In this document: positions 1 to 18,180 of the stretch, piece by piece
Layout of the letters: every line of letters begins with the position of its first letter
How positions within the stretch are numbered: position 1 is the stretch's first letter
From: a virus
Lineage: Duplodnaviria > Heunggongvirae > Uroviricota > Caudoviricetes
IMG/VR virus record: IMGVR_UViG_2541047813_000002
Strand: one strand, 5' to 3'
DNA: 19,395 bases
Notes under the pieces: model-generated
Database searches by the model: none
The model's input: the letters and a program-made list of their open reading frames with translations, nothing else
What the model was told of the DNA's origin: nothing
Program-made: the position numbers and the translations under genes

Positions 1-339
1 TTATAATTTGTTACTGTGCCACTCAAGGGCAATATCTTTGAAGGTGTTGTTTAACTGCGTTTCCCGGGCAATCTTTTCCTCTCGCTTCACTTCCATCAGA
101 TCGATTCCCCCAGAGATACCTCTTTTAGCTTCTTCAAGTTTTGCAGGAGCATCAGCTAAGGTGACCTCAGGATACACACCTAGTGCTAACAGCTTCTCTT
201 TACCAGCTACACGATACTTGAGACGCCAATATTCTCCTCCACCAGGTTTTACCAGGAGGTACAGACCACCACCATCAGCCAACTTGTAAGCCTTCTCTTT
301 TGGCTTGGCAGTGTCTATTTGACGGGCATTGAGTTTCAC
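1..339 (-). CDS. int: Tyrosine integrase (P4-type), N-terminal 112 codons only; the gene continues beyond the window start. Apparent GTG start at 339.
   Basis: ORF open to window edge. N-terminus (M)KLNARQIDTAKPKEKAYKLADGGGLYLLVKP...WRLKYR is about 92% identical to the N-terminus of the complete integrase at 18181-19395 and has the typical P4-like integrase arm-binding N-domain. In-frame TAG upstream excludes a longer ORF. Confidence 0.85.
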   Translation of the reverse strand: MKLNARQIDTAKPKEKAYKLADGGGLYLLVKPGGGEYWRLKYRVAGKEKLLALGVYPEVTLADAPAKLEEAKRGISGGIDLMEVKREEKIARETQLNNTFKDIALEWHSNKL

Positions 340-885: not shown

Positions 886-1173
886 TTACTGTCTCTGGCA
901 ATCTTTATCGCGATAACGCCTGAAGTACCCTCTCGCTTCCTCATCCATACCAAGAGCCGAATGAGTCCGCTTAACTGCCTGTCTTAAATCTCCGAATCTG
1001 TCTGTAGTTGCTGGTGGGCGTGCCGCCTTACGGATACATTCAGAGCGTCTGTTTGCTGCATGTTCACGTTCTTTATCGCCATCTGCCAGCATCATGACTT
1101 CTGCCCATCGTGCGGCAGCTCTCCGGTATAGCCCTTTTGACTCCAGCTCTTCAGCTTTCCTGTCCTTTATCAT
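886..1173 (-). CDS. PerC-family-like small transcriptional regulator (95 aa)
   Basis: ATG at 1173 with GAGAGG 5 nt upstream. Sequence MIKDRKAEELESKGLYRRAAARWAEVM... matches my recollection of the PerC/Pch family N-terminal signature (AEELExKGLxRRAAxRW); not verified by search. Confidence 0.55.
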   Translation of the reverse strand: MIKDRKAEELESKGLYRRAAARWAEVMMLADGDKEREHAANRRSECIRKAARPPATTDRFGDLRQAVKRTHSALGMDEEARGYFRRYRDKDCQRQ

Positions 1174-1902: not shown

Positions 1903-2925
1903 TCAATCGCTCCCTTTCCGCCCTTCAGCTACAGGGTCGTTGTCGGCGATAACAAAACCTAAGTCCTGAGAGAATCTCTCTCGTGGGAATCCTTTAGCAG
2001 GTAAACCCATTGAATCATATCCACATCCGGGAACATTTGGTTTAGAGTCAATAAGGTCTGCAATTTGCCGAAGCCATGTTGATCCCGGACCAAGTCGTTT
2101 AACTAAGTACCAGATAATACAGATCGCGCTAAAAATCCTCTCGCAACTCTCTGGATGGAGATTAAGTCCGTCAAAGTATTCATTATCCGGTACTGGAACT
2201 CGGGGATGCTTTCTATTCCATATTCTGGAATGGTGAGCGCAACGATTCCTTATGAGATTAAGGCACTTCAACCATTTTGCAAATGTCTGCTTATTATCAA
2301 TGCCAAAACGACGTATAATTTTCCCCTGCATATGACCATTAAGCATCGCATAATATTTAGACATCTGACCAAAATCCCATGTCTCCACCGCCACCCAAAA
2401 TGGAATCTCCTTGCCTTGGCTTCGATGCCATTCAATACAGTCATCTCTGCTTTCGTCTAATTTTACTTTTTGCTTATACACCCAATGCTCGAAGGCAGAT
2501 GAGAATTTTGGATTAATGTATTTTGATGACATGTAGGCAAGTGGATCATTGCGACCAACCTCATGCGCGATGACTGAACGAACATGAATCTCTATTCTTT
2601 CGATAGCATCAATCATCAAAAGACGCAGTTTTTTGTCAAAAAGATATAGATCGTACGTCTTCTCGAAACTGGTACCAGCAAGAAATCGGTCTGTTCTGTA
2701 CGAAAGACCTTTATCTGTTGTCGCAATAATTCTTGAAGGGTACCAAAAACCTGACAATCGATAATATCCAACCTGCGACAGCTTACGTATCGCACGATTT
2801 CGATCATTGATAATCATGCCACGTTCAAGTAGCAATCCTAGCAATTCGTGATAGTCCTTATGAGGCTTTGCGGCAATCATAGTGGCGAAACAAAAGATAA
2901 TAAAAGGCCCGACCGTGAAACTCAC
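1903..2925 (-). CDS. Abi_2 family (AbiD/AbiF-like) abortive-infection protein; true start possibly ATG at 2880
   Basis: KPHKDYHELLGLLLERGMIINDRNRAIRKLSQVGYYRLSGFWYP matches the conserved Abi_2 N-terminal signature (...YYRLSxYWYP). Lower-GC than the replication module. No convincing RBS at either candidate start. Confidence 0.8.
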   Translation of the reverse strand: MSFTVGPFIIFCFATMIAAKPHKDYHELLGLLLERGMIINDRNRAIRKLSQVGYYRLSGFWYPSRIIATTDKGLSYRTDRFLAGTSFEKTYDLYLFDKKLRLLMIDAIERIEIHVRSVIAHEVGRNDPLAYMSSKYINPKFSSAFEHWVYKQKVKLDESRDDCIEWHRSQGKEIPFWVAVETWDFGQMSKYYAMLNGHMQGKIIRRFGIDNKQTFAKWLKCLNLIRNRCAHHSRIWNRKHPRVPVPDNEYFDGLNLHPESCERIFSAICIIWYLVKRLGPGSTWLRQIADLIDSKPNVPGCGYDSMGLPAKGFPRERFSQDLGFVIADNDPVAEGRKGSD

Positions 2926-4120: not shown

Positions 4121-6226
4121 TTATTGAGCTTCTTTTTGTGATGCCTGTGCGACTCTGGTGAGCGATTGTGTGACCGTACTGATCGCTCTGTCATATGCTG
4201 TGCTACCTTTTGGCGTATTTGCCAGACGTAACAAGGCATTTCGTATAACAGGGCTTTCGTATGCCTTCGCTGCTCCGCCTACGGCACCAGCAGCAGGAAC
4301 AACAAACGCAGCCGTTTTTAGCATCCCCGCTAATACTGCTGCGTTTATGATGCCACCACCAACTAACAATCCATAAAGCTGCTGACCATTTAAGTTTTGA
4401 ACGTTCGCTTTTGCCGCGTGTCTTGTATCGTTGAGGTATTTAATAACGCCGTCCAGTTCCTTTCCATGTACGCCTTTAAAGAAAGTTGCTGATTGCTTCC
4501 TGTTCCGGTGTAACGCATTAATAAACTTCTCAACACTGATATTTCCAGACGGATCAGTCGCCTTATCTACAGCATTCTGAACTATGGCTGCTCGTGCGTT
4601 TTGCCTACCATTGTCATCCAGAAGCCTGTAAAGCTGAGAACGTTCTGATGGGCTTTGGCTAAAAACGAGTTTTGTTACATCCTCAGGCGTGGCCTTGCCG
4701 CTGGCTATTGCCTTTTGAACGCGCGTTCTTCCCATCATGTCATTGAATTTAGACCATGAACGATCAACCCTTGCCATATTAATGGCTTCGTCTGCTCCAA
4801 GATTTTTGGCTACGGCTTTTTTCATATCCGCCGTATATGCCTTGTAGATAATATCGCTGGCTTTCTGGAGCGTATCTTTATCAACAGTGTCAGATGACGC
4901 CATAAATCGCTTTCGAAGATCGGTTCTGTTTTCCCTCGCCAGACGCAGGTCATTTGGTCCGCTGGTGATATCGTCTTTAAATTGCTGCAAGACTTTTACC
5001 GCGGCTCTATCCTGAGATTTGCCCGGGCGGCTTAACACGGCAATCTGATTGTCGATAGCTTTTACCGTGTTTGAGAGATCGACAGGGGTATCCCCCATAG
5101 CGTCAATTATGCGGTTATATCGCTTTCCTGCTGCCTCAATGAATTTTTGTTGCCCTTTAGTCGCAGATTCATAAAGCTGTTTATCAGAAATGCCACCCAG
5201 ACCATCGCTAAATGTTCTGACTAAATTTTCTCGTGCTTGTTGTTGATTCAGCCGATTCTTACCGGTTCCAAAAAAAGGAACTCTTTCGCCTAATGTCTGA
5301 GCCTGACTCTGCATAAAGGTTTTATCTTTCAGCATGTCACTGGTCATTAACGGCAGATTTCTTTCCGATGCAAAGTCGACAGCAGCCTTTGCTTCAGGCG
5401 ACATATCACCACGAACAGCCCTCGAAACCGCACTCGCTGTATTTTCCAGCCCCTTACCAATACCACCAATGCCAGCAGAAATTACCGTTTGTAACGGTTC
5501 AATATCTTCTCCACCAGCAAGGCTAGTGGCTCCCTGTAGTGCTAAATCTGTAGCTGCTGATTTTCCTATGGCACCAAGCACCGTTCCAGCCCTGCCAGCT
5601 GGTGTAAACGCCAACGCATTAGCAAGAAACGAAGTCAGGTCTTGCGGTGATAAACCCGGCTTGTTCAGGGCATAATCACCTGATGGCAGAGAAACGATAG
5701 TATTCCCCTTCTCATCCTGCCTTAATGTCGCCCCCATTCCCTGAAGAATCTTTTCCTGAGACGCGTCAGAGCCGAAAAGTTGAGACCATCCAGCCTTTAG
5801 GGCATCCATGCTTAGTGAGTTCAATTCTGGGGCAGAGGCGACATTTTGCAGTCTCTCCATCTCTGGAGTCATTCGGCTTTCGCCTGTTATAGCATCGCGC
5901 ATCGCAGCCCCAAGACTGGCTCCCTGTTCTGCTGAACGCTCAAGCCCCTCTCTTTGCTGAGTAGCTAACTTTGCATACCCTGACGCAAGAGAATTATCAG
6001 ATGATGTATGTTGAATATTTTGAGTTGCTGATTGGGATCGGTCTATTTCATTCGTTGATGGTAGTGGATAGGCAGCATAAAAAGCCTGCTTAGCCTGCTC
6101 TACACTTTCTCCGGCTTGCGGGGCAACGACTTCATTGAAGTATTGCTCCTGAGCCTGCGCTTTTTGTTCTGGTGCTAACGCCTGATACTGTGGAGAGGCG
6201 ATAACATCTTTCCATGCTTTAGCCAT
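4121..6226 (-). CDS. Large Q/A/G-rich protein (701 aa) with C-terminal glycine-zipper hydrophobic segment; phage ejection/DNA-transfer protein-like (P22 gp16-like by size and position)
   Basis: Long ORF; ATGA start/stop overlap with the upstream gene at 6226; C-terminal LLVGGGIINAAVLAGMLKTAAFVVPAAGAVGGAAKA. The family assignment is an inference, not a match. Confidence 0.85.
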   Translation of the reverse strand: MAKAWKDVIASPQYQALAPEQKAQAQEQYFNEVVAPQAGESVEQAKQAFYAAYPLPSTNEIDRSQSATQNIQHTSSDNSLASGYAKLATQQREGLERSAEQGASLGAAMRDAITGESRMTPEMERLQNVASAPELNSLSMDALKAGWSQLFGSDASQEKILQGMGATLRQDEKGNTIVSLPSGDYALNKPGLSPQDLTSFLANALAFTPAGRAGTVLGAIGKSAATDLALQGATSLAGGEDIEPLQTVISAGIGGIGKGLENTASAVSRAVRGDMSPEAKAAVDFASERNLPLMTSDMLKDKTFMQSQAQTLGERVPFFGTGKNRLNQQQARENLVRTFSDGLGGISDKQLYESATKGQQKFIEAAGKRYNRIIDAMGDTPVDLSNTVKAIDNQIAVLSRPGKSQDRAAVKVLQQFKDDITSGPNDLRLARENRTDLRKRFMASSDTVDKDTLQKASDIIYKAYTADMKKAVAKNLGADEAINMARVDRSWSKFNDMMGRTRVQKAIASGKATPEDVTKLVFSQSPSERSQLYRLLDDNGRQNARAAIVQNAVDKATDPSGNISVEKFINALHRNRKQSATFFKGVHGKELDGVIKYLNDTRHAAKANVQNLNGQQLYGLLVGGGIINAAVLAGMLKTAAFVVPAAGAVGGAAKAYESPVIRNALLRLANTPKGSTAYDRAISTVTQSLTRVAQASQKEAQ

Positions 6227-7359
6227 TAATCACCCCATAGTGAAGAAAAGTTACTGCTGGCTGCTGGCTGTGATACCTGCTCAGATTGCGGCAATGTCTG
6301 CGACGAAGAAGAAGTTCCTCTGTCAACTGCTGAAATAACCCGCAAAGCATCATAAGCTCGACCAGAAGCAGCTTTCAGCGAATTGAACTGGTTTTCCATC
6401 TTCCGGCGCTTGGTATCAATGGTTTTTGTGGAGTCGCCAGGCTGAGGGAAATACATTTGATAATATTTTGACATTTCAGCAGGTGCGATAGCTGCCCCTG
6501 TTTCCTGACGGAGTATTGCCATTATTGCGTCATTAGCATTAACAACGTATTGCTGCTCTGTTGGGCTGAGCGTTAAGTTAGCCAGCGTCCCATTACCCAA
6601 AGCATTATTAATGATCGCCACTCGCTGTGGGCTAAGCTGGTCTCTCAGTGTATCTATTGAATCAAGAGCATCCCTAACCCTGTATGCAAATCCAGCAGCT
6701 TTTTTAGCCCCTTCTGGCGACTTTTCCATGATCTTTTGGGCTGTTGGCAAAGCTATTGGACGAAACCCATCTCCAGATATTGGCTGGTTTAGTTTTCCCT
6801 GCTCTTCACTTCCGTCTGTGTAGTATTTTGTGACAGTGCCATCATCGTTTTCTCTAACACTCATTAATTTTTTGGCGTTTGTATTAATTCCAGCCGCTGC
6901 CGCAAATGCCGCCGCCCCCTCTGGATCCGCCTTTAACATTTGAGCGTACTGATTGTAATTCTGCATTGCTGCTGTTGGTGCATATGCTGACGTTAACGCA
7001 TTTGCTCGGCTAATATCCTGCCCTCTCGCCTGAAGTGCTTCGCCAGCCTGATTGCTGCGGATTGTTTCTGCCAACTTGCCACGCTCAATATCCCGACCTT
7101 CCATTTGATCTTTGATATCGAAATACTTCTCATGACCGAGAGAAAACAGTGCCATACTACCAGCAAGCCGCTGGAATCCCTGTGGATCATTAACATGCAT
7201 TTCGGCAACAGACTCAGGAGAAATTCCCAAGCGACGCATTTCATCTTCGTTATCTGCTATGAATTTTCCAAATGCCCCAGTTCCGAGCGAAGATGCGATT
7301 TGAGCACTAGTCGCAAGATGACCAATAGAATTTCTCTGGTCGTCATCAATAAAGCCCAT
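6226..7359 (-). CDS. C-terminal 377 codons of an apparently split ~470-aa gene (P22 gp20-like size)
   Basis: Reading frame stays open and protein-like upstream of the ATG back to a TGA at 7420-7422. No usable RBS before ATG 7359 (AAAGGG abuts the ATG). Confidence 0.75.
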   Translation of the reverse strand: MGFIDDDQRNSIGHLATSAQIASSLGTGAFGKFIADNEDEMRRLGISPESVAEMHVNDPQGFQRLAGSMALFSLGHEKYFDIKDQMEGRDIERGKLAETIRSNQAGEALQARGQDISRANALTSAYAPTAAMQNYNQYAQMLKADPEGAAAFAAAAGINTNAKKLMSVRENDDGTVTKYYTDGSEEQGKLNQPISGDGFRPIALPTAQKIMEKSPEGAKKAAGFAYRVRDALDSIDTLRDQLSPQRVAIINNALGNGTLANLTLSPTEQQYVVNANDAIMAILRQETGAAIAPAEMSKYYQMYFPQPGDSTKTIDTKRRKMENQFNSLKAASGRAYDALRVISAVDRGTSSSSQTLPQSEQVSQPAASSNFSSLWGD

Positions 7360-7634
7360 CCCTTTCTGAACGCTTTCAAATTCTTCTGGATACTCAGCAT
7401 TTTGTTTCTGTCTCCAGACTCAAAAGCCCCGGCATATGCTTTCTGAAACTCTGCTTTACGCTGTTGTTGACGTGCCTGCTGATTAATCTCAGCAACGCCT
7501 CTTAGCCCCTGTAGCGCCATTAAACCTACGTTTGGCTGCTGCTGATACTGCACAGGCTGAGGAACGGAAGAACGAGGAGCATTATCATTTTGCGGTGCCA
7601 TGCTAGGCAGCCCGCCAAGTTGCCATGTCGCCAT
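7257..7634 (-). CDS. N-terminal fragment of the same split gene; translationally coupled to the upstream 225-aa gene (TAATG); protein-like only for the first ~80 codons
   Basis: ATG 7634 overlaps the stop of the 225-aa gene. Sequence is Q-rich like its neighbours until about 7400, then becomes junk-like (ALLMTTREILLVILRLV) where the 377-codon frame takes over. Confidence 0.5.
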   Translation of the reverse strand: MATWQLGGLPSMAPQNDNAPRSSVPQPVQYQQQPNVGLMALQGLRGVAEINQQARQQQRKAEFQKAYAGAFESGDRNKMLSIQKNLKAFRKGWALLMTTREILLVILRLVLKSHLRSELGHLENS

Positions 7635-8311
7635 TAGAATCCAAGCCCCCCAACAAGACCAATAAGCCCACCACCAATAGCCCCGGCGACATTACCTATA
7701 CCCGGAACAACGGAACCAAGTTGCGCACCCGCTAAAGCGCCTGATGCCGCCCCACCAATACCACGCGCAAGACTGGATGGCTGCTGCGCCTGACCTGCAC
7801 GAATAGCGCCAAGCCCCTGCAAGAGTTGCCCGGTATTATTGGCGTAGTTTTGCCCTGCTGTTGCCTGCCCTGATGCCGCATTCATCCCGACATTTAGCAG
7901 GTTTCCATAATTTTGCATTTGCCCACTAAGCCAATTGTTATAAAGCATGGGCGCAATGGAAGATAACTGGTTACTGGTAGCTGTTGAGCCAAGCCCCCCG
8001 GTAGCTTCTGCTGAGACAAGGTTCTGATAACGGGCCTGATCTGCCTGTGTTTTATATAAACCAGAACCAAAGAAATCATTCGCGGCTTTATTCTGCCCTT
8101 CCAGAGTCATCAGTCCTTGTAGTTGTTGTAAAGCAGGCAATCCGACTTCTGCATACGGCTTGAGATTATTCATCACCGTATTCCACTGCTCGCGCTGCAA
8201 ATCAATTGCCTGCTGCTGGGCCTTCGCCTGAGCTTTAGAGGCACCACCATCACCGCCTTTTTCGTATACGGCACGATTGAGATGTTTATGAGCTATATGG
8301 GTAATTAACAT
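7634..8311 (-). CDS. Q/G-rich protein (225 aa) with C-terminal glycine-zipper; ejection-protein-like (P22 gp7-like size)
   Basis: ATG 8311 with AAGGAA upstream; overlaps the stop of the 153-aa gene. Contains EKGGDGGASKAQAKAQQQ and ends GIGNVAGAIGGGLIGLVGGLGF. Confidence 0.85.
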   Translation of the reverse strand: MLITHIAHKHLNRAVYEKGGDGGASKAQAKAQQQAIDLQREQWNTVMNNLKPYAEVGLPALQQLQGLMTLEGQNKAANDFFGSGLYKTQADQARYQNLVSAEATGGLGSTATSNQLSSIAPMLYNNWLSGQMQNYGNLLNVGMNAASGQATAGQNYANNTGQLLQGLGAIRAGQAQQPSSLARGIGGAASGALAGAQLGSVVPGIGNVAGAIGGGLIGLVGGLGF

Positions 8312-8766
8312 TCGCTGAATTCCTTATATTGTTGCCGAGTTAACTGATAAAGCGTTACGCCGACGGGTTTACCACATCTGATATAAGCATCATCAAGGTG
8401 ACCAACACGGGTAGCGCCAAGCAAACGGATAATTGCCCGTCCGTATTTGGTGGTGTCAGGAACCATGGTAATGCTGTTAAGGAATGGTGAGTTTTCGAGA
8501 AGCCATTTGCAGAATAATCGATGCCCTTGCAGTGCATATTCACCACGGAATCCGGGGTCGTACACCGCATGGCATTCAACAATGCTATGCCAGAAGTTAC
8601 GCACTTCATGAACGCCAGCCAGCACCAATCCTTCGTAGATACCGAGATATACCGCATCAGGCTTGATGTAGTACGTGTGCCCCGGCTCAACAATATTTTC
8701 GGTATTGCCAGGCTCGTTAAGAAAGGCCTGTAATCGCACAGGGTTATCAATAAATTTTAGTTCCAT
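8305..8766 (-). CDS. Hypothetical protein (153 aa), first large gene of the operon
   Basis: ATG start; ORF; stop overlaps the start of the next gene. Confidence 0.8.
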   Translation of the reverse strand: MELKFIDNPVRLQAFLNEPGNTENIVEPGHTYYIKPDAVYLGIYEGLVLAGVHEVRNFWHSIVECHAVYDPGFRGEYALQGHRLFCKWLLENSPFLNSITMVPDTTKYGRAIIRLLGATRVGHLDDAYIRCGKPVGVTLYQLTRQQYKEFSEC

Positions 8767-9342: not shown

Positions 9343-9392
9343 CACTCTCTGATGCCAGCCAGGTGTTGTGCGCATCAATTCAGTCACATTGT

Positions 9393-9504
9393 GTTGGTTC
9401 AAAATACCGTGTTGTTGGTTCAGTGTTGGTTCAATAAAAAGAATAAAATCCTTATAAAACAACACTCTTTACAAATTGAACCAACTGAACCAACTGAACC
9501 AACG
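9393..9504. repeat. Iteron module B (putative ori): GTTGGTTCA at 9393, 9414, 9425; AT-rich spacer; three contiguous TGAACCAAC at 9478-9504
   Basis: Read directly; lies between the primase stop (9529) and the terminator; reverse complement of module A. Confidence 0.75.
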
Positions 9505-14064: not shown

Positions 14065-14255
14065 TTTTCACCCCCAAGAATTACCAGCTCTGCACGGGCA
14101 TCGTTAACCAAAGATGAGCACGCTTTAATCGCATCCACGACATCAGCAGCGTCCATTTCTTCAGCCGAAAGACTGACAGCAACCAGGACAGCCGCTGCTT
14201 GCTCGATTAATTGAAGTGCGGACGTAAGGCGAGGGGTATTAATTGAGTTATTCAT
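14061..14255 (-). CDS. Hypothetical small protein (64 aa; [10 protein letters not shown]...)
   Basis: ATG 14255 with GGGGG upstream; ATGAATAA overlap with the stop at 14248-14250. Confidence 0.6.
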   Translation of the reverse strand: MNNSINTPRLTSALQLIEQAAAVLVAVSLSAEEMDAADVVDAIKACSSLVNDARAELVILGGEK

Positions 14256-14466
14256 TGGTTGCCCCCGTTTTTCCTGGCATTTCGCCACCTTCCAGCAGGA
14301 AATGAACGTCGCGAACGGCGAGGTCCAATATCGCGAGTAACGCCTTCAGTCTTTCGTCTCGTGAGGGAGAGTTGCTCACCAGAATGTCGTTAATCACTTC
14401 TGTCAGTGTGATGATCTGGCTTGTGCGTTCGAGGGGGTCCATATGCACATCGTAGGTTTTAATCAT
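14248..14466 (-). CDS. Hypothetical small protein (72 aa; [17 protein letters not shown]...)
   Basis: GGAGGTGG sits 6 nt upstream of ATG 14466; ATGATTAA overlap with the stop of another frame. In-frame with the long ORF 14248-15315. Confidence 0.5.
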   Translation of the reverse strand: MIKTYDVHMDPLERTSQIITLTEVINDILVSNSPSRDERLKALLAILDLAVRDVHFLLEGGEMPGKTGATNE

Positions 14467-15315
14467 GTGCCACCTCCATGCGGATACGACCAGCAAAAAA
14501 GCAGACGTGATCGCGCACCAGAGAACGGCGAGCATCGCGTTCAGACTCGGCAGCAATATGATGAATTTTGGCGGTAATTGTCGGGCAATCGCGGCGAACT
14601 GCGGCGATAATCCAGATAAATTGCGTTTTTTGGGTAGGGGTAGTAGCCAGCATGTGGCAGCCTCCTTGTACTGGGAATTCTTCCCACCACCGGAGCTGCG
14701 AAACTCGCTGGTGGTGGACTGAACAGAGTTCGCAGTACCGGCGTACAAGGAAACCGGCCAGCCTTTCGGCTGCCCTGTCCAGCCCACCATAATTTTGCAA
14801 GCGACGCGGATTATAACCACATCACTGAAAAAAGTGTGAGTCTGGCTAACGGCACAAAAAAAGACGCTCGGCGCGTCATGTGTCGCCTCGTACATTTCCG
14901 GGCTGCGAAACCCGGCACCCGTTTTATGAGGTGCCTTATAACCATAAACCGTGTTGCCGCATAACGGCAAGCTCTTTTTTATGGACTCCGAAAACTCACT
15001 ATTGGAAGAACCAGAAGCACAGTACATCGTGCTCATTTCGTTAACGTCACGCGCGTGGACGAATGTTTTTGTGGAGTCACTACACGAGCGGAAGACATCA
15101 TCTACGACCAGAAATTTTCTGGCGCAGCCGCTGACCTTCTCAATGCTAATATCATCGCCCGAGATTTCTGGTATGGTTAAGGCATCCGTTCCGACCACCA
15201 GCAAATGATAAACTTTGCTTGTATCTGCTGTATTAATGCCTGACTTTGCCGTCATATTGCTGGATTTTGGCGACATGCCAGCCAGTGAAAATGTCTTCTT
15301 CTGGACGGTTAGCAT
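14248..15315 (-). CDS. Long ORF (355 codons) anchored by a well-supported start at 15315; the 3' extent is doubtful and it may be chimeric. The N-terminal ~150 codons are protein-like.
   Basis: GGAGGTT sits 6 nt upstream of ATG 15315, which overlaps the upstream stop (ATGCTAA). The distal half is W/P/C-rich and overlaps two RBS-supported small ORFs. Confidence 0.4.
14459..14653 (-). CDS. Possible small protein (64 aa; [11 protein letters not shown]...), or part of a structured non-coding region
   Basis: AAGGAGG sits 7 nt upstream of ATG 14653; stop coupled to the next start. The region also has open frames on several other strands and frames and nested inverted repeats. Confidence 0.35.
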   Translation of the reverse strand: MLATTPTQKTQFIWIIAAVRRDCPTITAKIHHIAAESERDARRSLVRDHVCFFAGRIRMEVAHD

Positions 15316-18037: not shown

Positions 18038-18180
18038 ACGCCACCCCGCGCCCCCTAATTCTGACGGCTATGCCAGCCCGTAGGGGTGTACGGGTTTTCG
18101 GGGATCAGCCTAGACATAGCCTATTCTTTGTTCGTCTACATAAGTCTACTACCATTGCTTAACACTGTCTATTCATACAG

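Follow-up and report, generated by a model that had tools for sequence, protein, structure and literature searches.

The P22 ejection protein gp20 belongs with Sf6 gp12 and APSE-2 P33 to the Pfam family PF16928 (Inj_translocase). In P22 and Sf6, this protein is packaged in the virions and released at infection to give a trans-periplasmic conduit (PMC8954989, PMC10461980). P22 gp20 and gp16 must be cognate, as mismatched pairs kill infectivity (PMC10461980). A related set of genes is carried by EcCIMP1, a phage-inducible chromosomal island (PICI) of Escherichia coli MP1 for which the P22-like phage Kapi1 acts as helper. Helper-induced excision and transfer have been experimentally shown only for EcCIMP1 with Kapi1, and the genes of the EcCIMP1 cassette are listed only as 'DNA transfer'-like hypothetical proteins (PMC11773190).

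The present analysis deals with a homologue of gp20 found on the minus strand (7634-6226) of a stretch of viral DNA of 19,395 nucleotides, referred to below as the window. The gene falls in the Pfam family PF16928 and in the PHROG family phrog_917, like P22 gp20 and its kin. Its intact form encodes 473 aa and occupies the third place in a 14-7-20-16 cassette of the P22 style. The window copy is interpreted, with a probability of about 0.9, as a frameshift pseudogene produced by a 13-bp deletion which is present in the window and in at least one close relative.

Host element and comparison with known systems

On the basis of gene content and order, the split gene is assigned to an EcCIMP1-type PICI, probably inserted at thrW, and not to a P22-like prophage. 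As annotated in L004 and in the 99.8% identical island of YP3, the integrase, AlpA, primase and accessory genes are found in order over about 19 kb, and no capsid, portal, terminase, tail or lysis gene is present in these annotations. An int-alpA RNA is recognized by Rfam at positions 18053-18120. The window itself ends inside the integrase gene; the tRNA-Thr (thrW)/proA insertion site was seen in YP3 and MP1, so that the near-identical YP3 island and EcCIMP1 have this site in common, together with the same neighbouring vat/MarR island. The gene order common to EcCIMP1 and the window runs as follows: integrase, AlpA, AntA, DUF4222, Ash, primase (TOPRIM/DUF927), 53-aa ORF, DUF2824, gp7, gp20, gp16 and PerC. 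The gp20/gp16 pair of MP1 is nevertheless different and intact (439 aa for gp20, and 906 aa for a gp16 that includes a lytic transglycosylase domain), compared to 473 and 701 aa in the family of the window, where gp20 is a pseudogene. The cargo genes of the two islands also differ. The cargo of the window island includes an Abi_2 gene.

The cassette order DUF2824, gp7, gp20, gp16 reproduces the P22 order, and, as in P22, the gp20-like gene is embedded in the block through overlapping stop and start codons. The intact protein is of the same size class as P22 gp20 (473 versus 471 aa) and is 37.7% identical to it over residues 1-223. The relationship is mosaic, the C-terminal half being unrelated to that of P22 and close to that of APSE, whose P33 is 53% identical over 93% of the length. 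Unlike P22 gp20, the window gene is broken by the deletion and resides on a satellite island deprived of capsid, portal, tail and lysis genes. No PDB entry was matched by the intact 473-aa protein in a sequence search.

Reading frames and domain matches

The coordinates of the cassette genes and of the individual parts of the split gene are collected in Table 1.

Table 1. Features of the split gp20-like gene and its neighbours in the window.
Feature	Position	Strand	Description
gp14-like gene (DUF2824, 153 aa)	8305..8766	-	PF11039, E = 2.3e-61; phrog_651; first of the 14-7-20-16 cassette
gp7-like ejection-protein gene (225 aa)	7634..8311	-	PF25688 P22_gp7, E = 1.9e-72; phrog_598
gp20-like N-terminal part	7398..7634	-	79 native codons, M1-M79; residues 1-79 of the intact 473-aa WP_019841349.1
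Deletion junction	7396..7397	-	13 bp absent compared to intact alleles (pairwise and multiple alignments)
Out-of-frame tail of upstream ORF	7257..7397	-	46 nonsense codons LSIQKNLKAFRKGW...HLENS, TAG at 7259-7257
Heptamer A_AAG_GGA (X_XXY_YYZ)	7359..7365	-	zero frame of the truncated ORF; sole such heptamer in the ORF
gp20-like C-terminal part	6226..7395	-	native E85-D473 with the stop codon, displaced to the -1 frame
gp16-like ejection-protein gene (701 aa)	4121..6226	-	phrog_770, E = 3.9e-163

The reading frame of the gene changes after codon 79. Its native ATG at 7634, which overlaps the stop of the gp7-like gene (TAATG, 7636-7632), opens an upstream ORF of 125 codons (7634-7257) where the native codons are followed by the out-of-frame tail, a sequence whose counterpart is absent from every homologue in the alignment. 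Beyond a TGA at 7422-7420, the -1 frame is open from position 7419 onwards. The earliest start codon in this frame, the ATG at 7359 (native M97), defines a 377-aa ORF ending at the stop 6228-6226. A second in-frame ATG is located at 7239, 18 nt beyond the stop of the upstream ORF, and its equivalent was selected by the gene caller in L004. The C-terminal part is 99% identical to the intact protein. A preliminary description had recognized in this region a single gene of the gp20 type, divided by a switch to the -1 frame, with an upstream ORF coupled to the preceding stop and protein-like for about 70-80 codons, and a downstream frame open beyond its ATG up to 7420 and devoid of a usable ribosome binding site. 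All of these points hold, including the last one: an AAGG lies only 1 nt ahead of the ATG at 7359, and the 377-codon ORF is devoid of a properly spaced Shine-Dalgarno sequence.

Both ORFs match PF16928 at consecutive profile positions, 37-93 for the upstream ORF (E = 4e-11, 43.4 bits) and 104-217 for the 377-aa ORF (E = 6e-37, 127.9 bits). The intact allele scores 197 bits, and both it and the two fragments exceed the curated Pfam cut-off of 29.7 bits. The two ORFs also match phrog_917 (E = 9e-112 for this family), the C-terminal part doing so at positions 112-504. As judged from these profile scores, the consecutive PF16928 matches are far beyond chance. In place of an uninterrupted ORF of about 430-475 codons, the window displays two ORFs, 125 and 377 codons long, that do not share a frame, and the gp20-type ORFs of its relatives are single and comprise 473, 439, 471 or 462 codons. 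The window copy is therefore regarded as a pseudogene of the PF16928 family, two ORFs corresponding to one ORF in the relatives.

The 13-bp deletion and its distribution

Alignment to intact alleles displays a clean gap of 13 bp at the junction, the sequence being otherwise identical. The bases lost from the minus strand are GCAGTCTTATTTC; as both ends have a single C in common, the loss can equally be written as CGCAGTCTTATTT. Without these bases, residues R80-S84 are missing and the native frame becomes -1; an ORF of 473 aa is restored when the 13 bp are put back. Alignment to intact homologues, which the preliminary description had proposed as a check, thus locates the lesion between positions 7397 and 7396. 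The runs GGGG, TTTT and AAAA that it had listed as candidate sites must be abandoned: a single-base indel was rejected as all three runs are the same in intact alleles and only the 13-bp gap differs. An insertion of 13 bp in the other genomes is ruled out as well, since the proteins of P22, APSE-2 and EcCIMP1 carry residues in the corresponding columns, and P22 gp20, APSE-2 P33 and EcCIMP1 gp20 align across the site free of gaps. Transcriptional slippage needs runs of 8-9 nt or more and was also discarded, as no run of A or T in the vicinity exceeds 4 nt, far short of this. An imperfect 8-nt repeat, TGCGCAGT / TTCTGAGT, with a spacing of 13 nt, is found at the deletion. The shared C and this repeat are the two features pointing to replication slippage or a microhomology-mediated event, through which the deletion probably arose.

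The 13 bp are kept in 187 of the 187 complete E. coli genomes matching the junction, where one protein of 473 aa is encoded. All 84 bases are found in the 188 matching records from these genomes, versus 71 in the window. At least 462 contigs carry the exact intact protein and 999 carry a sister variant of 473 aa, nearly all full-length alleles being at least 99% identical, versus 2 contigs for the 125-aa frameshift product. The exact junction sequence has no match in 185,579 species-representative genomes, and a protein-guided scan of the same collection returned a single locus, in Escherichia sp. MOD1-EC7003, where the copy is intact. Five further islands with an identical primase all possess an intact gp20-like gene of 473 or 439 aa. 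The two-frame layout is consequently conserved in 0 of the 187 complete E. coli genomes, and P22, APSE-2, EcCIMP1 and the five further islands have single ORFs. The arrangement that, according to the preliminary description, would have spoken against a split gene, namely homologues consistently made of two separate genes, is thus encountered neither in the 187 complete E. coli genomes nor in P22, APSE-2 and EcCIMP1. The same deletion has a second carrier, GCA_014896895.1; over 17.6 kb, this assembly and the window are separated by 4 SNPs and a 4-bp indel.

Alternative explanations

A functional split into two polypeptides, or an adaptive inactivation of the gene, for instance one ending the competition of gp20 with the ejection proteins of a non-cognate helper, is regarded as very unlikely. 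The deletion did persist while its two carriers diverged by a few SNPs, and, since gp20 and gp16 must be cognate for P22 infectivity (PMC10461980), the loss of one partner could affect the phenotype. These observations have to be balanced against two carriers only, versus hundreds to thousands of intact copies, and against the structure of the locus: the break falls within the conserved PF16928 domain and removes five residues, the 46-residue tail is nonsense and the second ORF has no properly spaced ribosome binding site.

The preliminary description had proposed either a mutation or a sequencing indel; the mutation is retained and the sequencing indel is not. That the gap is an artefact of sequencing or assembly, the real genome having an intact 473-codon gene, could be suspected from the absence of the deletion from complete genomes, the carriers found being draft assemblies only. 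The identical 13-bp deletion is however shared by two assemblies with the differences given above, and a clean loss of this size in non-repetitive, non-homopolymer sequence is atypical of platform error. Compared to YP3, its closest complete relative, the window displays 5 SNPs and 3 indels in 19.4 kb, and the 2 indels other than the 13-bp gap are both located in non-coding DNA. With so few differences, the window is not error-ridden. As it is present in two non-identical assemblies, the deletion is considered a genuine, inherited and lineage-private mutation, and an artefact appears extremely unlikely.

Programmed or effective -1 ribosomal frameshifting could in principle restore a near-full-length gp20-like protein. 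The window resembles known -1 sites by its overlapping 0 and -1 ORFs and by one formal heptamer in the overlap: whereas the preliminary description had seen none, A_AAG_GGA is found in the zero frame at 7365-7359, within the 160-nt overlap, and a -1 slip at this point would produce a fused protein of about 468 aa. This match looks meaningless. In every intact allele the stretch is read as CAG AAA GGG ATG and the heptamer is out of register; it cannot therefore be an evolved signal, the register having been created by the deletion. By chance alone, 53 codons should contain about 0.2 heptamers of this form (calculated from 1/256 per codon), and A_AAG_GGA is judged to be a chance occurrence. Known -1 frameshift sites include A_AAA_AAG of E. 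coli dnaX and the G/GT type of phage tail chaperones; with GGA in the A site, the window heptamer is a poor slippery sequence in E. coli by the standard of dnaX-type sites. A stimulatory structure would be sought 5-9 nt downstream of the heptamer, and none of significance was found: the segment 7358-7270 folds at -20.8 kcal/mol compared to a mean of -19.1 for shuffled sequences (z = -0.61), 54 of the 200 shuffles being as stable or better. The layout is thus unlike programmed sites in being made by a recent deletion, in its weak heptamer type, in the lack of downstream structure and in its absence from the single-ORF homologues, and frameshifting as the explanation is hardly credible; mutation, one of the two causes that the preliminary description had preferred to frameshifting, is the reading that the located deletion supports.

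Effect on the cassette and annotation

The gp7-like gene is translationally coupled to the gp20-like gene, and the stop of the latter overlaps the ATG of the gp16-like gene (TAATG, 6228-6224). The gp16 assignment extends to Pfam, PF26808 (Phage_P22_gp16) being matched by the identical gene in L004 and L009. In the frameshifted cassette, translation from the native coupled ATG would give the 125-aa product and end at 7257. The 377-codon remainder would yield a low-level product at best, with the ATG at 7359 as its start or, through reinitiation, the ATG at 7239. A C-terminal fragment, or a low-level fused product arising by spontaneous -1 slippage at A_AAG_GGA, is possible. About 1 kb of poorly translated mRNA would now separate the ribosomes from the gp16-like start. 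As this start normally depends on the TAATG overlap, expression of the gp16-like gene is probably reduced, and the upstream frameshift probably exerts polarity on it. The break within the conserved domain indicates that the gp20 function of the island is most likely lost. Having lost its own gp20, the island, if still mobilised, would depend on the ejection proteins of the helper phage.

The finding amounts to a biologically routine and lineage-private knockout, and its sole wider use would be as a natural gp20-null allele of the putative ejection cassette in EcCIMP1-type islands. It is conceivable, though quite unlikely, that the 14-7-20-16 cassette equips helper-built particles with the satellite's own DNA-delivery proteins, for example to evade exclusion of the SieA type, which targets gp20 and gp16; the 13-bp deletion would then be a natural gp20-null. 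In that case the null could be tolerated, the gp20 of the helper substituting for the missing protein. Alternatively, an orphan gp16 deprived of its cognate gp20 might poison helper virions and alter the behaviour of the island.

For annotation purposes, positions 6226-7634 should be described as a single pseudogene, a frameshifted member of the gp20 family of ejection proteins, instead of two hypothetical proteins. The 125-aa ORF is deposited under the accession EQU25822.1 (E. coli HVH 197) and is labeled as a hypothetical protein in GenBank.

Two-frame layout of the gp20-like gene

On the minus strand, a 125-codon ORF begins with the ATG at 7634, which forms an overlapping TAATG (7636-7632) with the stop of the preceding 225-aa gene, and ends at a TAG (7259-7257). 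In the -1 frame, a TGA (7422-7420) is the last stop before an open stretch that begins at 7419. The first start codon in this stretch, the ATG at 7359, leads into a 377-codon ORF that extends to a TAA (6228-6226), and TAATG again joins this stop to the start of the following gene. PF16928 ('DNA/protein translocase of phage P22 injectosome') is matched by both ORFs, which take up successive parts of the profile: positions 37-93 by the upstream ORF (E = 4e-11) and 104-217 by the downstream one (E = 6e-37). Each ORF matches phrog_917 as well. The preliminary description of a gp20-sized gene split by a -1 frame change is thus correct, well beyond chance, including the coupling of the first ORF to the preceding stop, its decay after a protein-like beginning and the opening of the second frame upstream of its ATG.

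The gene product of intact alleles (473 aa, WP_019841349.1) is annotated as 'phage DNA ejection protein'. When this protein was used as a TBLASTN query, P22 gp20 (37.7% identity over residues 1-223), P33 of phage APSE (53% over 93% of the length) and Sf6-, HK620- and epsilon34-type genes were matched, each relative aligning as one piece. Homologs that were consistently two separate genes would have spoken against a single gene, and none of these relatives is divided.

Nature and position of the lesion

The window segment 6100-7800 (1,701 bases) was compared to 5,426 complete Escherichia coli genomes using megablast. At least 80% of the query was covered in 181 genomes, with the top records extending over 1,714 bases. 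The intact allele of E. coli UPEC132 aligns to the window without any difference except that the latter lacks 13 bp at one point. Where intact alleles have ...AAAATG-CGCAGTCTTATTT-CTGAGTATCC..., the sequence in the window is ...AAAATGCTGAGTATCC..., which places the junction at 7397|7396 (minus strand), ambiguous by one base because a C is common to both ends. Residues R80-S84 are lost and E85-D473 are moved into the -1 frame. The protein sequences of UPEC132, EcCIMP1 (a chromosomal island of E. coli MP1), P22 and phage APSE-2 show no gap at this site, which indicates that the 13 bp are ancestral, and the two window ORFs flank it, one on each side. The deleted segment is spanned by a direct repeat, TGCGCAGT / TTCTGAGT, which is weak and imperfect, has its copies 13 nt apart and hints at replication slippage as the origin of the deletion.

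Mutation, sequencing error or programmed frameshifting

Either a mutation or a sequencing indel had been favored over programmed frameshifting; the first of these holds. Among ~15 billion proteins searched, the exact 125-aa frameshift product occurs on two contigs; its database entry is EQU25822.1 ('hypothetical protein G849_00483', E. coli HVH 197). One of these contigs, from GCA_014896895.1, carries the identical 13-bp deletion; over 17.6 kb, 4 SNPs and one 4-bp indel separate it from the window. Because two non-identical assemblies share the lesion, a sequencing or assembly error is ruled out, and inheritance within a small lineage is indicated. The window and the GCA_014896895.1 contig also have the same bases, different from those of YP3, the closest complete relative, at positions 1377, 12400 and 733, which is consistent with a single origin. 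A 71-nt junction query matched 188 records in 187 genomes, all with 84 bases at the site and none carrying the deletion, and the exact 39-nt junction pattern had no match in 185,579 species-representative genomes. By contrast, at least 462 contigs encode the exact intact protein, and 999 encode a sister variant of 473 aa.

Over 19.4 kb, no more than 5 SNPs and 3 indels distinguish the window from YP3, and the two indels other than the deletion both lie in non-coding DNA. One is a single base pair at 733. The other is a variable-length site at 476-479, between the integrase remnant and the PerC gene, where YP3 has 15 and GCA_014896895.1 has 4 more bases than the window.

The homopolymer runs proposed as indel sites, GGGG (7430-7427), TTTT (7425-7422) and AAAA (7403-7400), are all unaltered relative to intact alleles. 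One formal X_XXY_YYZ heptamer, reported earlier as absent, is present (A_AAG_GGA, 7365-7359, minus strand) and lies within the overlap in the zero frame. It is rejected as a frameshift signal: all intact alleles read these bases as CAG AAA GGG ATG, so that the heptamer owes its register solely to the deletion; by our calculation, the 53-codon overlap should hold about 0.2 such heptamers by chance; the 89 nt located 3' are no more stably folded than shuffled sequence (z = -0.61); and heptamers with GGA in the A site shift poorly in E. coli. Rare spontaneous slippage could at most yield a trace of a ~468-aa fusion.

The gp20-family gene of this island is a pseudogene created by a genuine, lineage-private 13-bp deletion. 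The preliminary interpretation stands overall but needs correction on what kind of indel it is, where it lies, whether a heptamer exists and which class of mobile element carries the gene. Gene family, island family and phenomenon alike are already known; a natural gp20-null allele of a satellite-borne, putative ejection cassette is the only mildly interesting angle.

Expected effects on translation

Translation from the native start would give 79 native residues followed by 46 nonsense residues. The ATG at 7359 corresponds to native M97 and, as noted earlier, has no usable ribosome binding site: the preceding AAAGGG lies only 1 nt away and at that distance could not serve as a Shine-Dalgarno sequence. 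Another in-frame ATG (7239) lies 18 nt past the stop of the upstream ORF, and the gene call of the second carrier starts at its equivalent (337 aa), so limited reinitiation is possible there. TAATG overlaps join the gp7-, gp20- and gp16-like genes in the intact cassette. The frameshift would leave ~1 kb of poorly translated mRNA before the gp16-like start, making weaker coupling and Rho-dependent polarity on that gene likely. According to published work, gp20 and gp16 have to be cognate to each other: if gene 20 alone or gene 16 alone is taken from Sf6, P22 is non-infectious. Escape from SieA exclusion maps to both proteins (PMC10461980).

The host element and its other features

The YP3 region, 99.8% identical to the window, adjoins tRNA-Thr and proA. 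Its order is integrase, DUF6387, AlpA-type HTH, AntA, DUF4222, Ash, small ORFs, TOPRIM/DUF927 primase, 53-aa ORF, DUF2824, gp7-like, gp20-like, gp16-like, Abi, PerC and integrase remnant, followed by the MarR/vat island. Layout and location are those of EcCIMP1, a phage-inducible chromosomal island mobilized by the P22-like phage Kapi1, whose cassette genes are listed only as hypothetical proteins similar to 'DNA transfer' proteins or DUF2824 (PMC11773190). Judging from this likeness, the window is not a P22-like prophage. Since the P22 order is 14-7-20-16, the island holds a complete copy of this block; capsid, portal, tail and lysis genes are absent from the island.

The gp20-like gene is intact in all five further islands with an identical 918-aa primase. 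Four encode the 473-aa form, three with a 701-aa gp16 and one (L012) with a 658-aa gp16; the fifth (L010) pairs a 439-aa form with a 906-aa gp16 that has a lytic transglycosylase domain. With two alternative pairs (473/701 and 439/906 aa), gp20 and gp16 appear to be swapped as one unit.

Features of the island (window coordinates)
Feature	Position	Strand	Remarks
14-7-20-16 block (DUF2824, gp7, gp20, gp16)	4121-8766	-	also locus L005 (12598-17766) and the five identical-primase islands (L009-L013)
C4 antisense RNA	14707-14794	-	Rfam, 81 bits, above gathering threshold
isrK Hfq-binding RNA	14857-14934	-	Rfam, 69 bits, above gathering threshold
int-alpA RNA	18053-18120	-	Rfam, 47 bits, above gathering threshold
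Integrase fragment	1-339	-	Arm DNA-binding part only; boundary with MarR/vat island
Abi_2-family abortive-infection gene	1903-2925	-	island cargo
PerC-family regulator	886-1173		island cargo
'ash family protein' ORF	14248-15315		355 aa
Iteron-like arrays	9391-9434; 9471-9503		opposite orientation

The integrase fragment marks the MarR/vat boundary, so two islands would sit in tandem at thrW, the site seen in YP3. The iteron-like arrays, made of copies of GTTGGTTCA(A/G), lie just downstream of the primase stop (9529), a position that makes them a candidate replication origin. C4 and isrK fall inside the 'ash family protein' ORF, which either overlaps regulatory RNAs or is annotated too long. 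Some gp7-like proteins of 225-235 aa (P0020, P0025, P0031) share a 90%-identity cluster with the 473-aa gp20-like protein, and one of them, P0031, continues into the region where gp20 starts and ends in ...DSNDDMATWRAA. This points to another, separate variant at the gp7/gp20 boundary of some genomes, due to a frameshift or to read-through.
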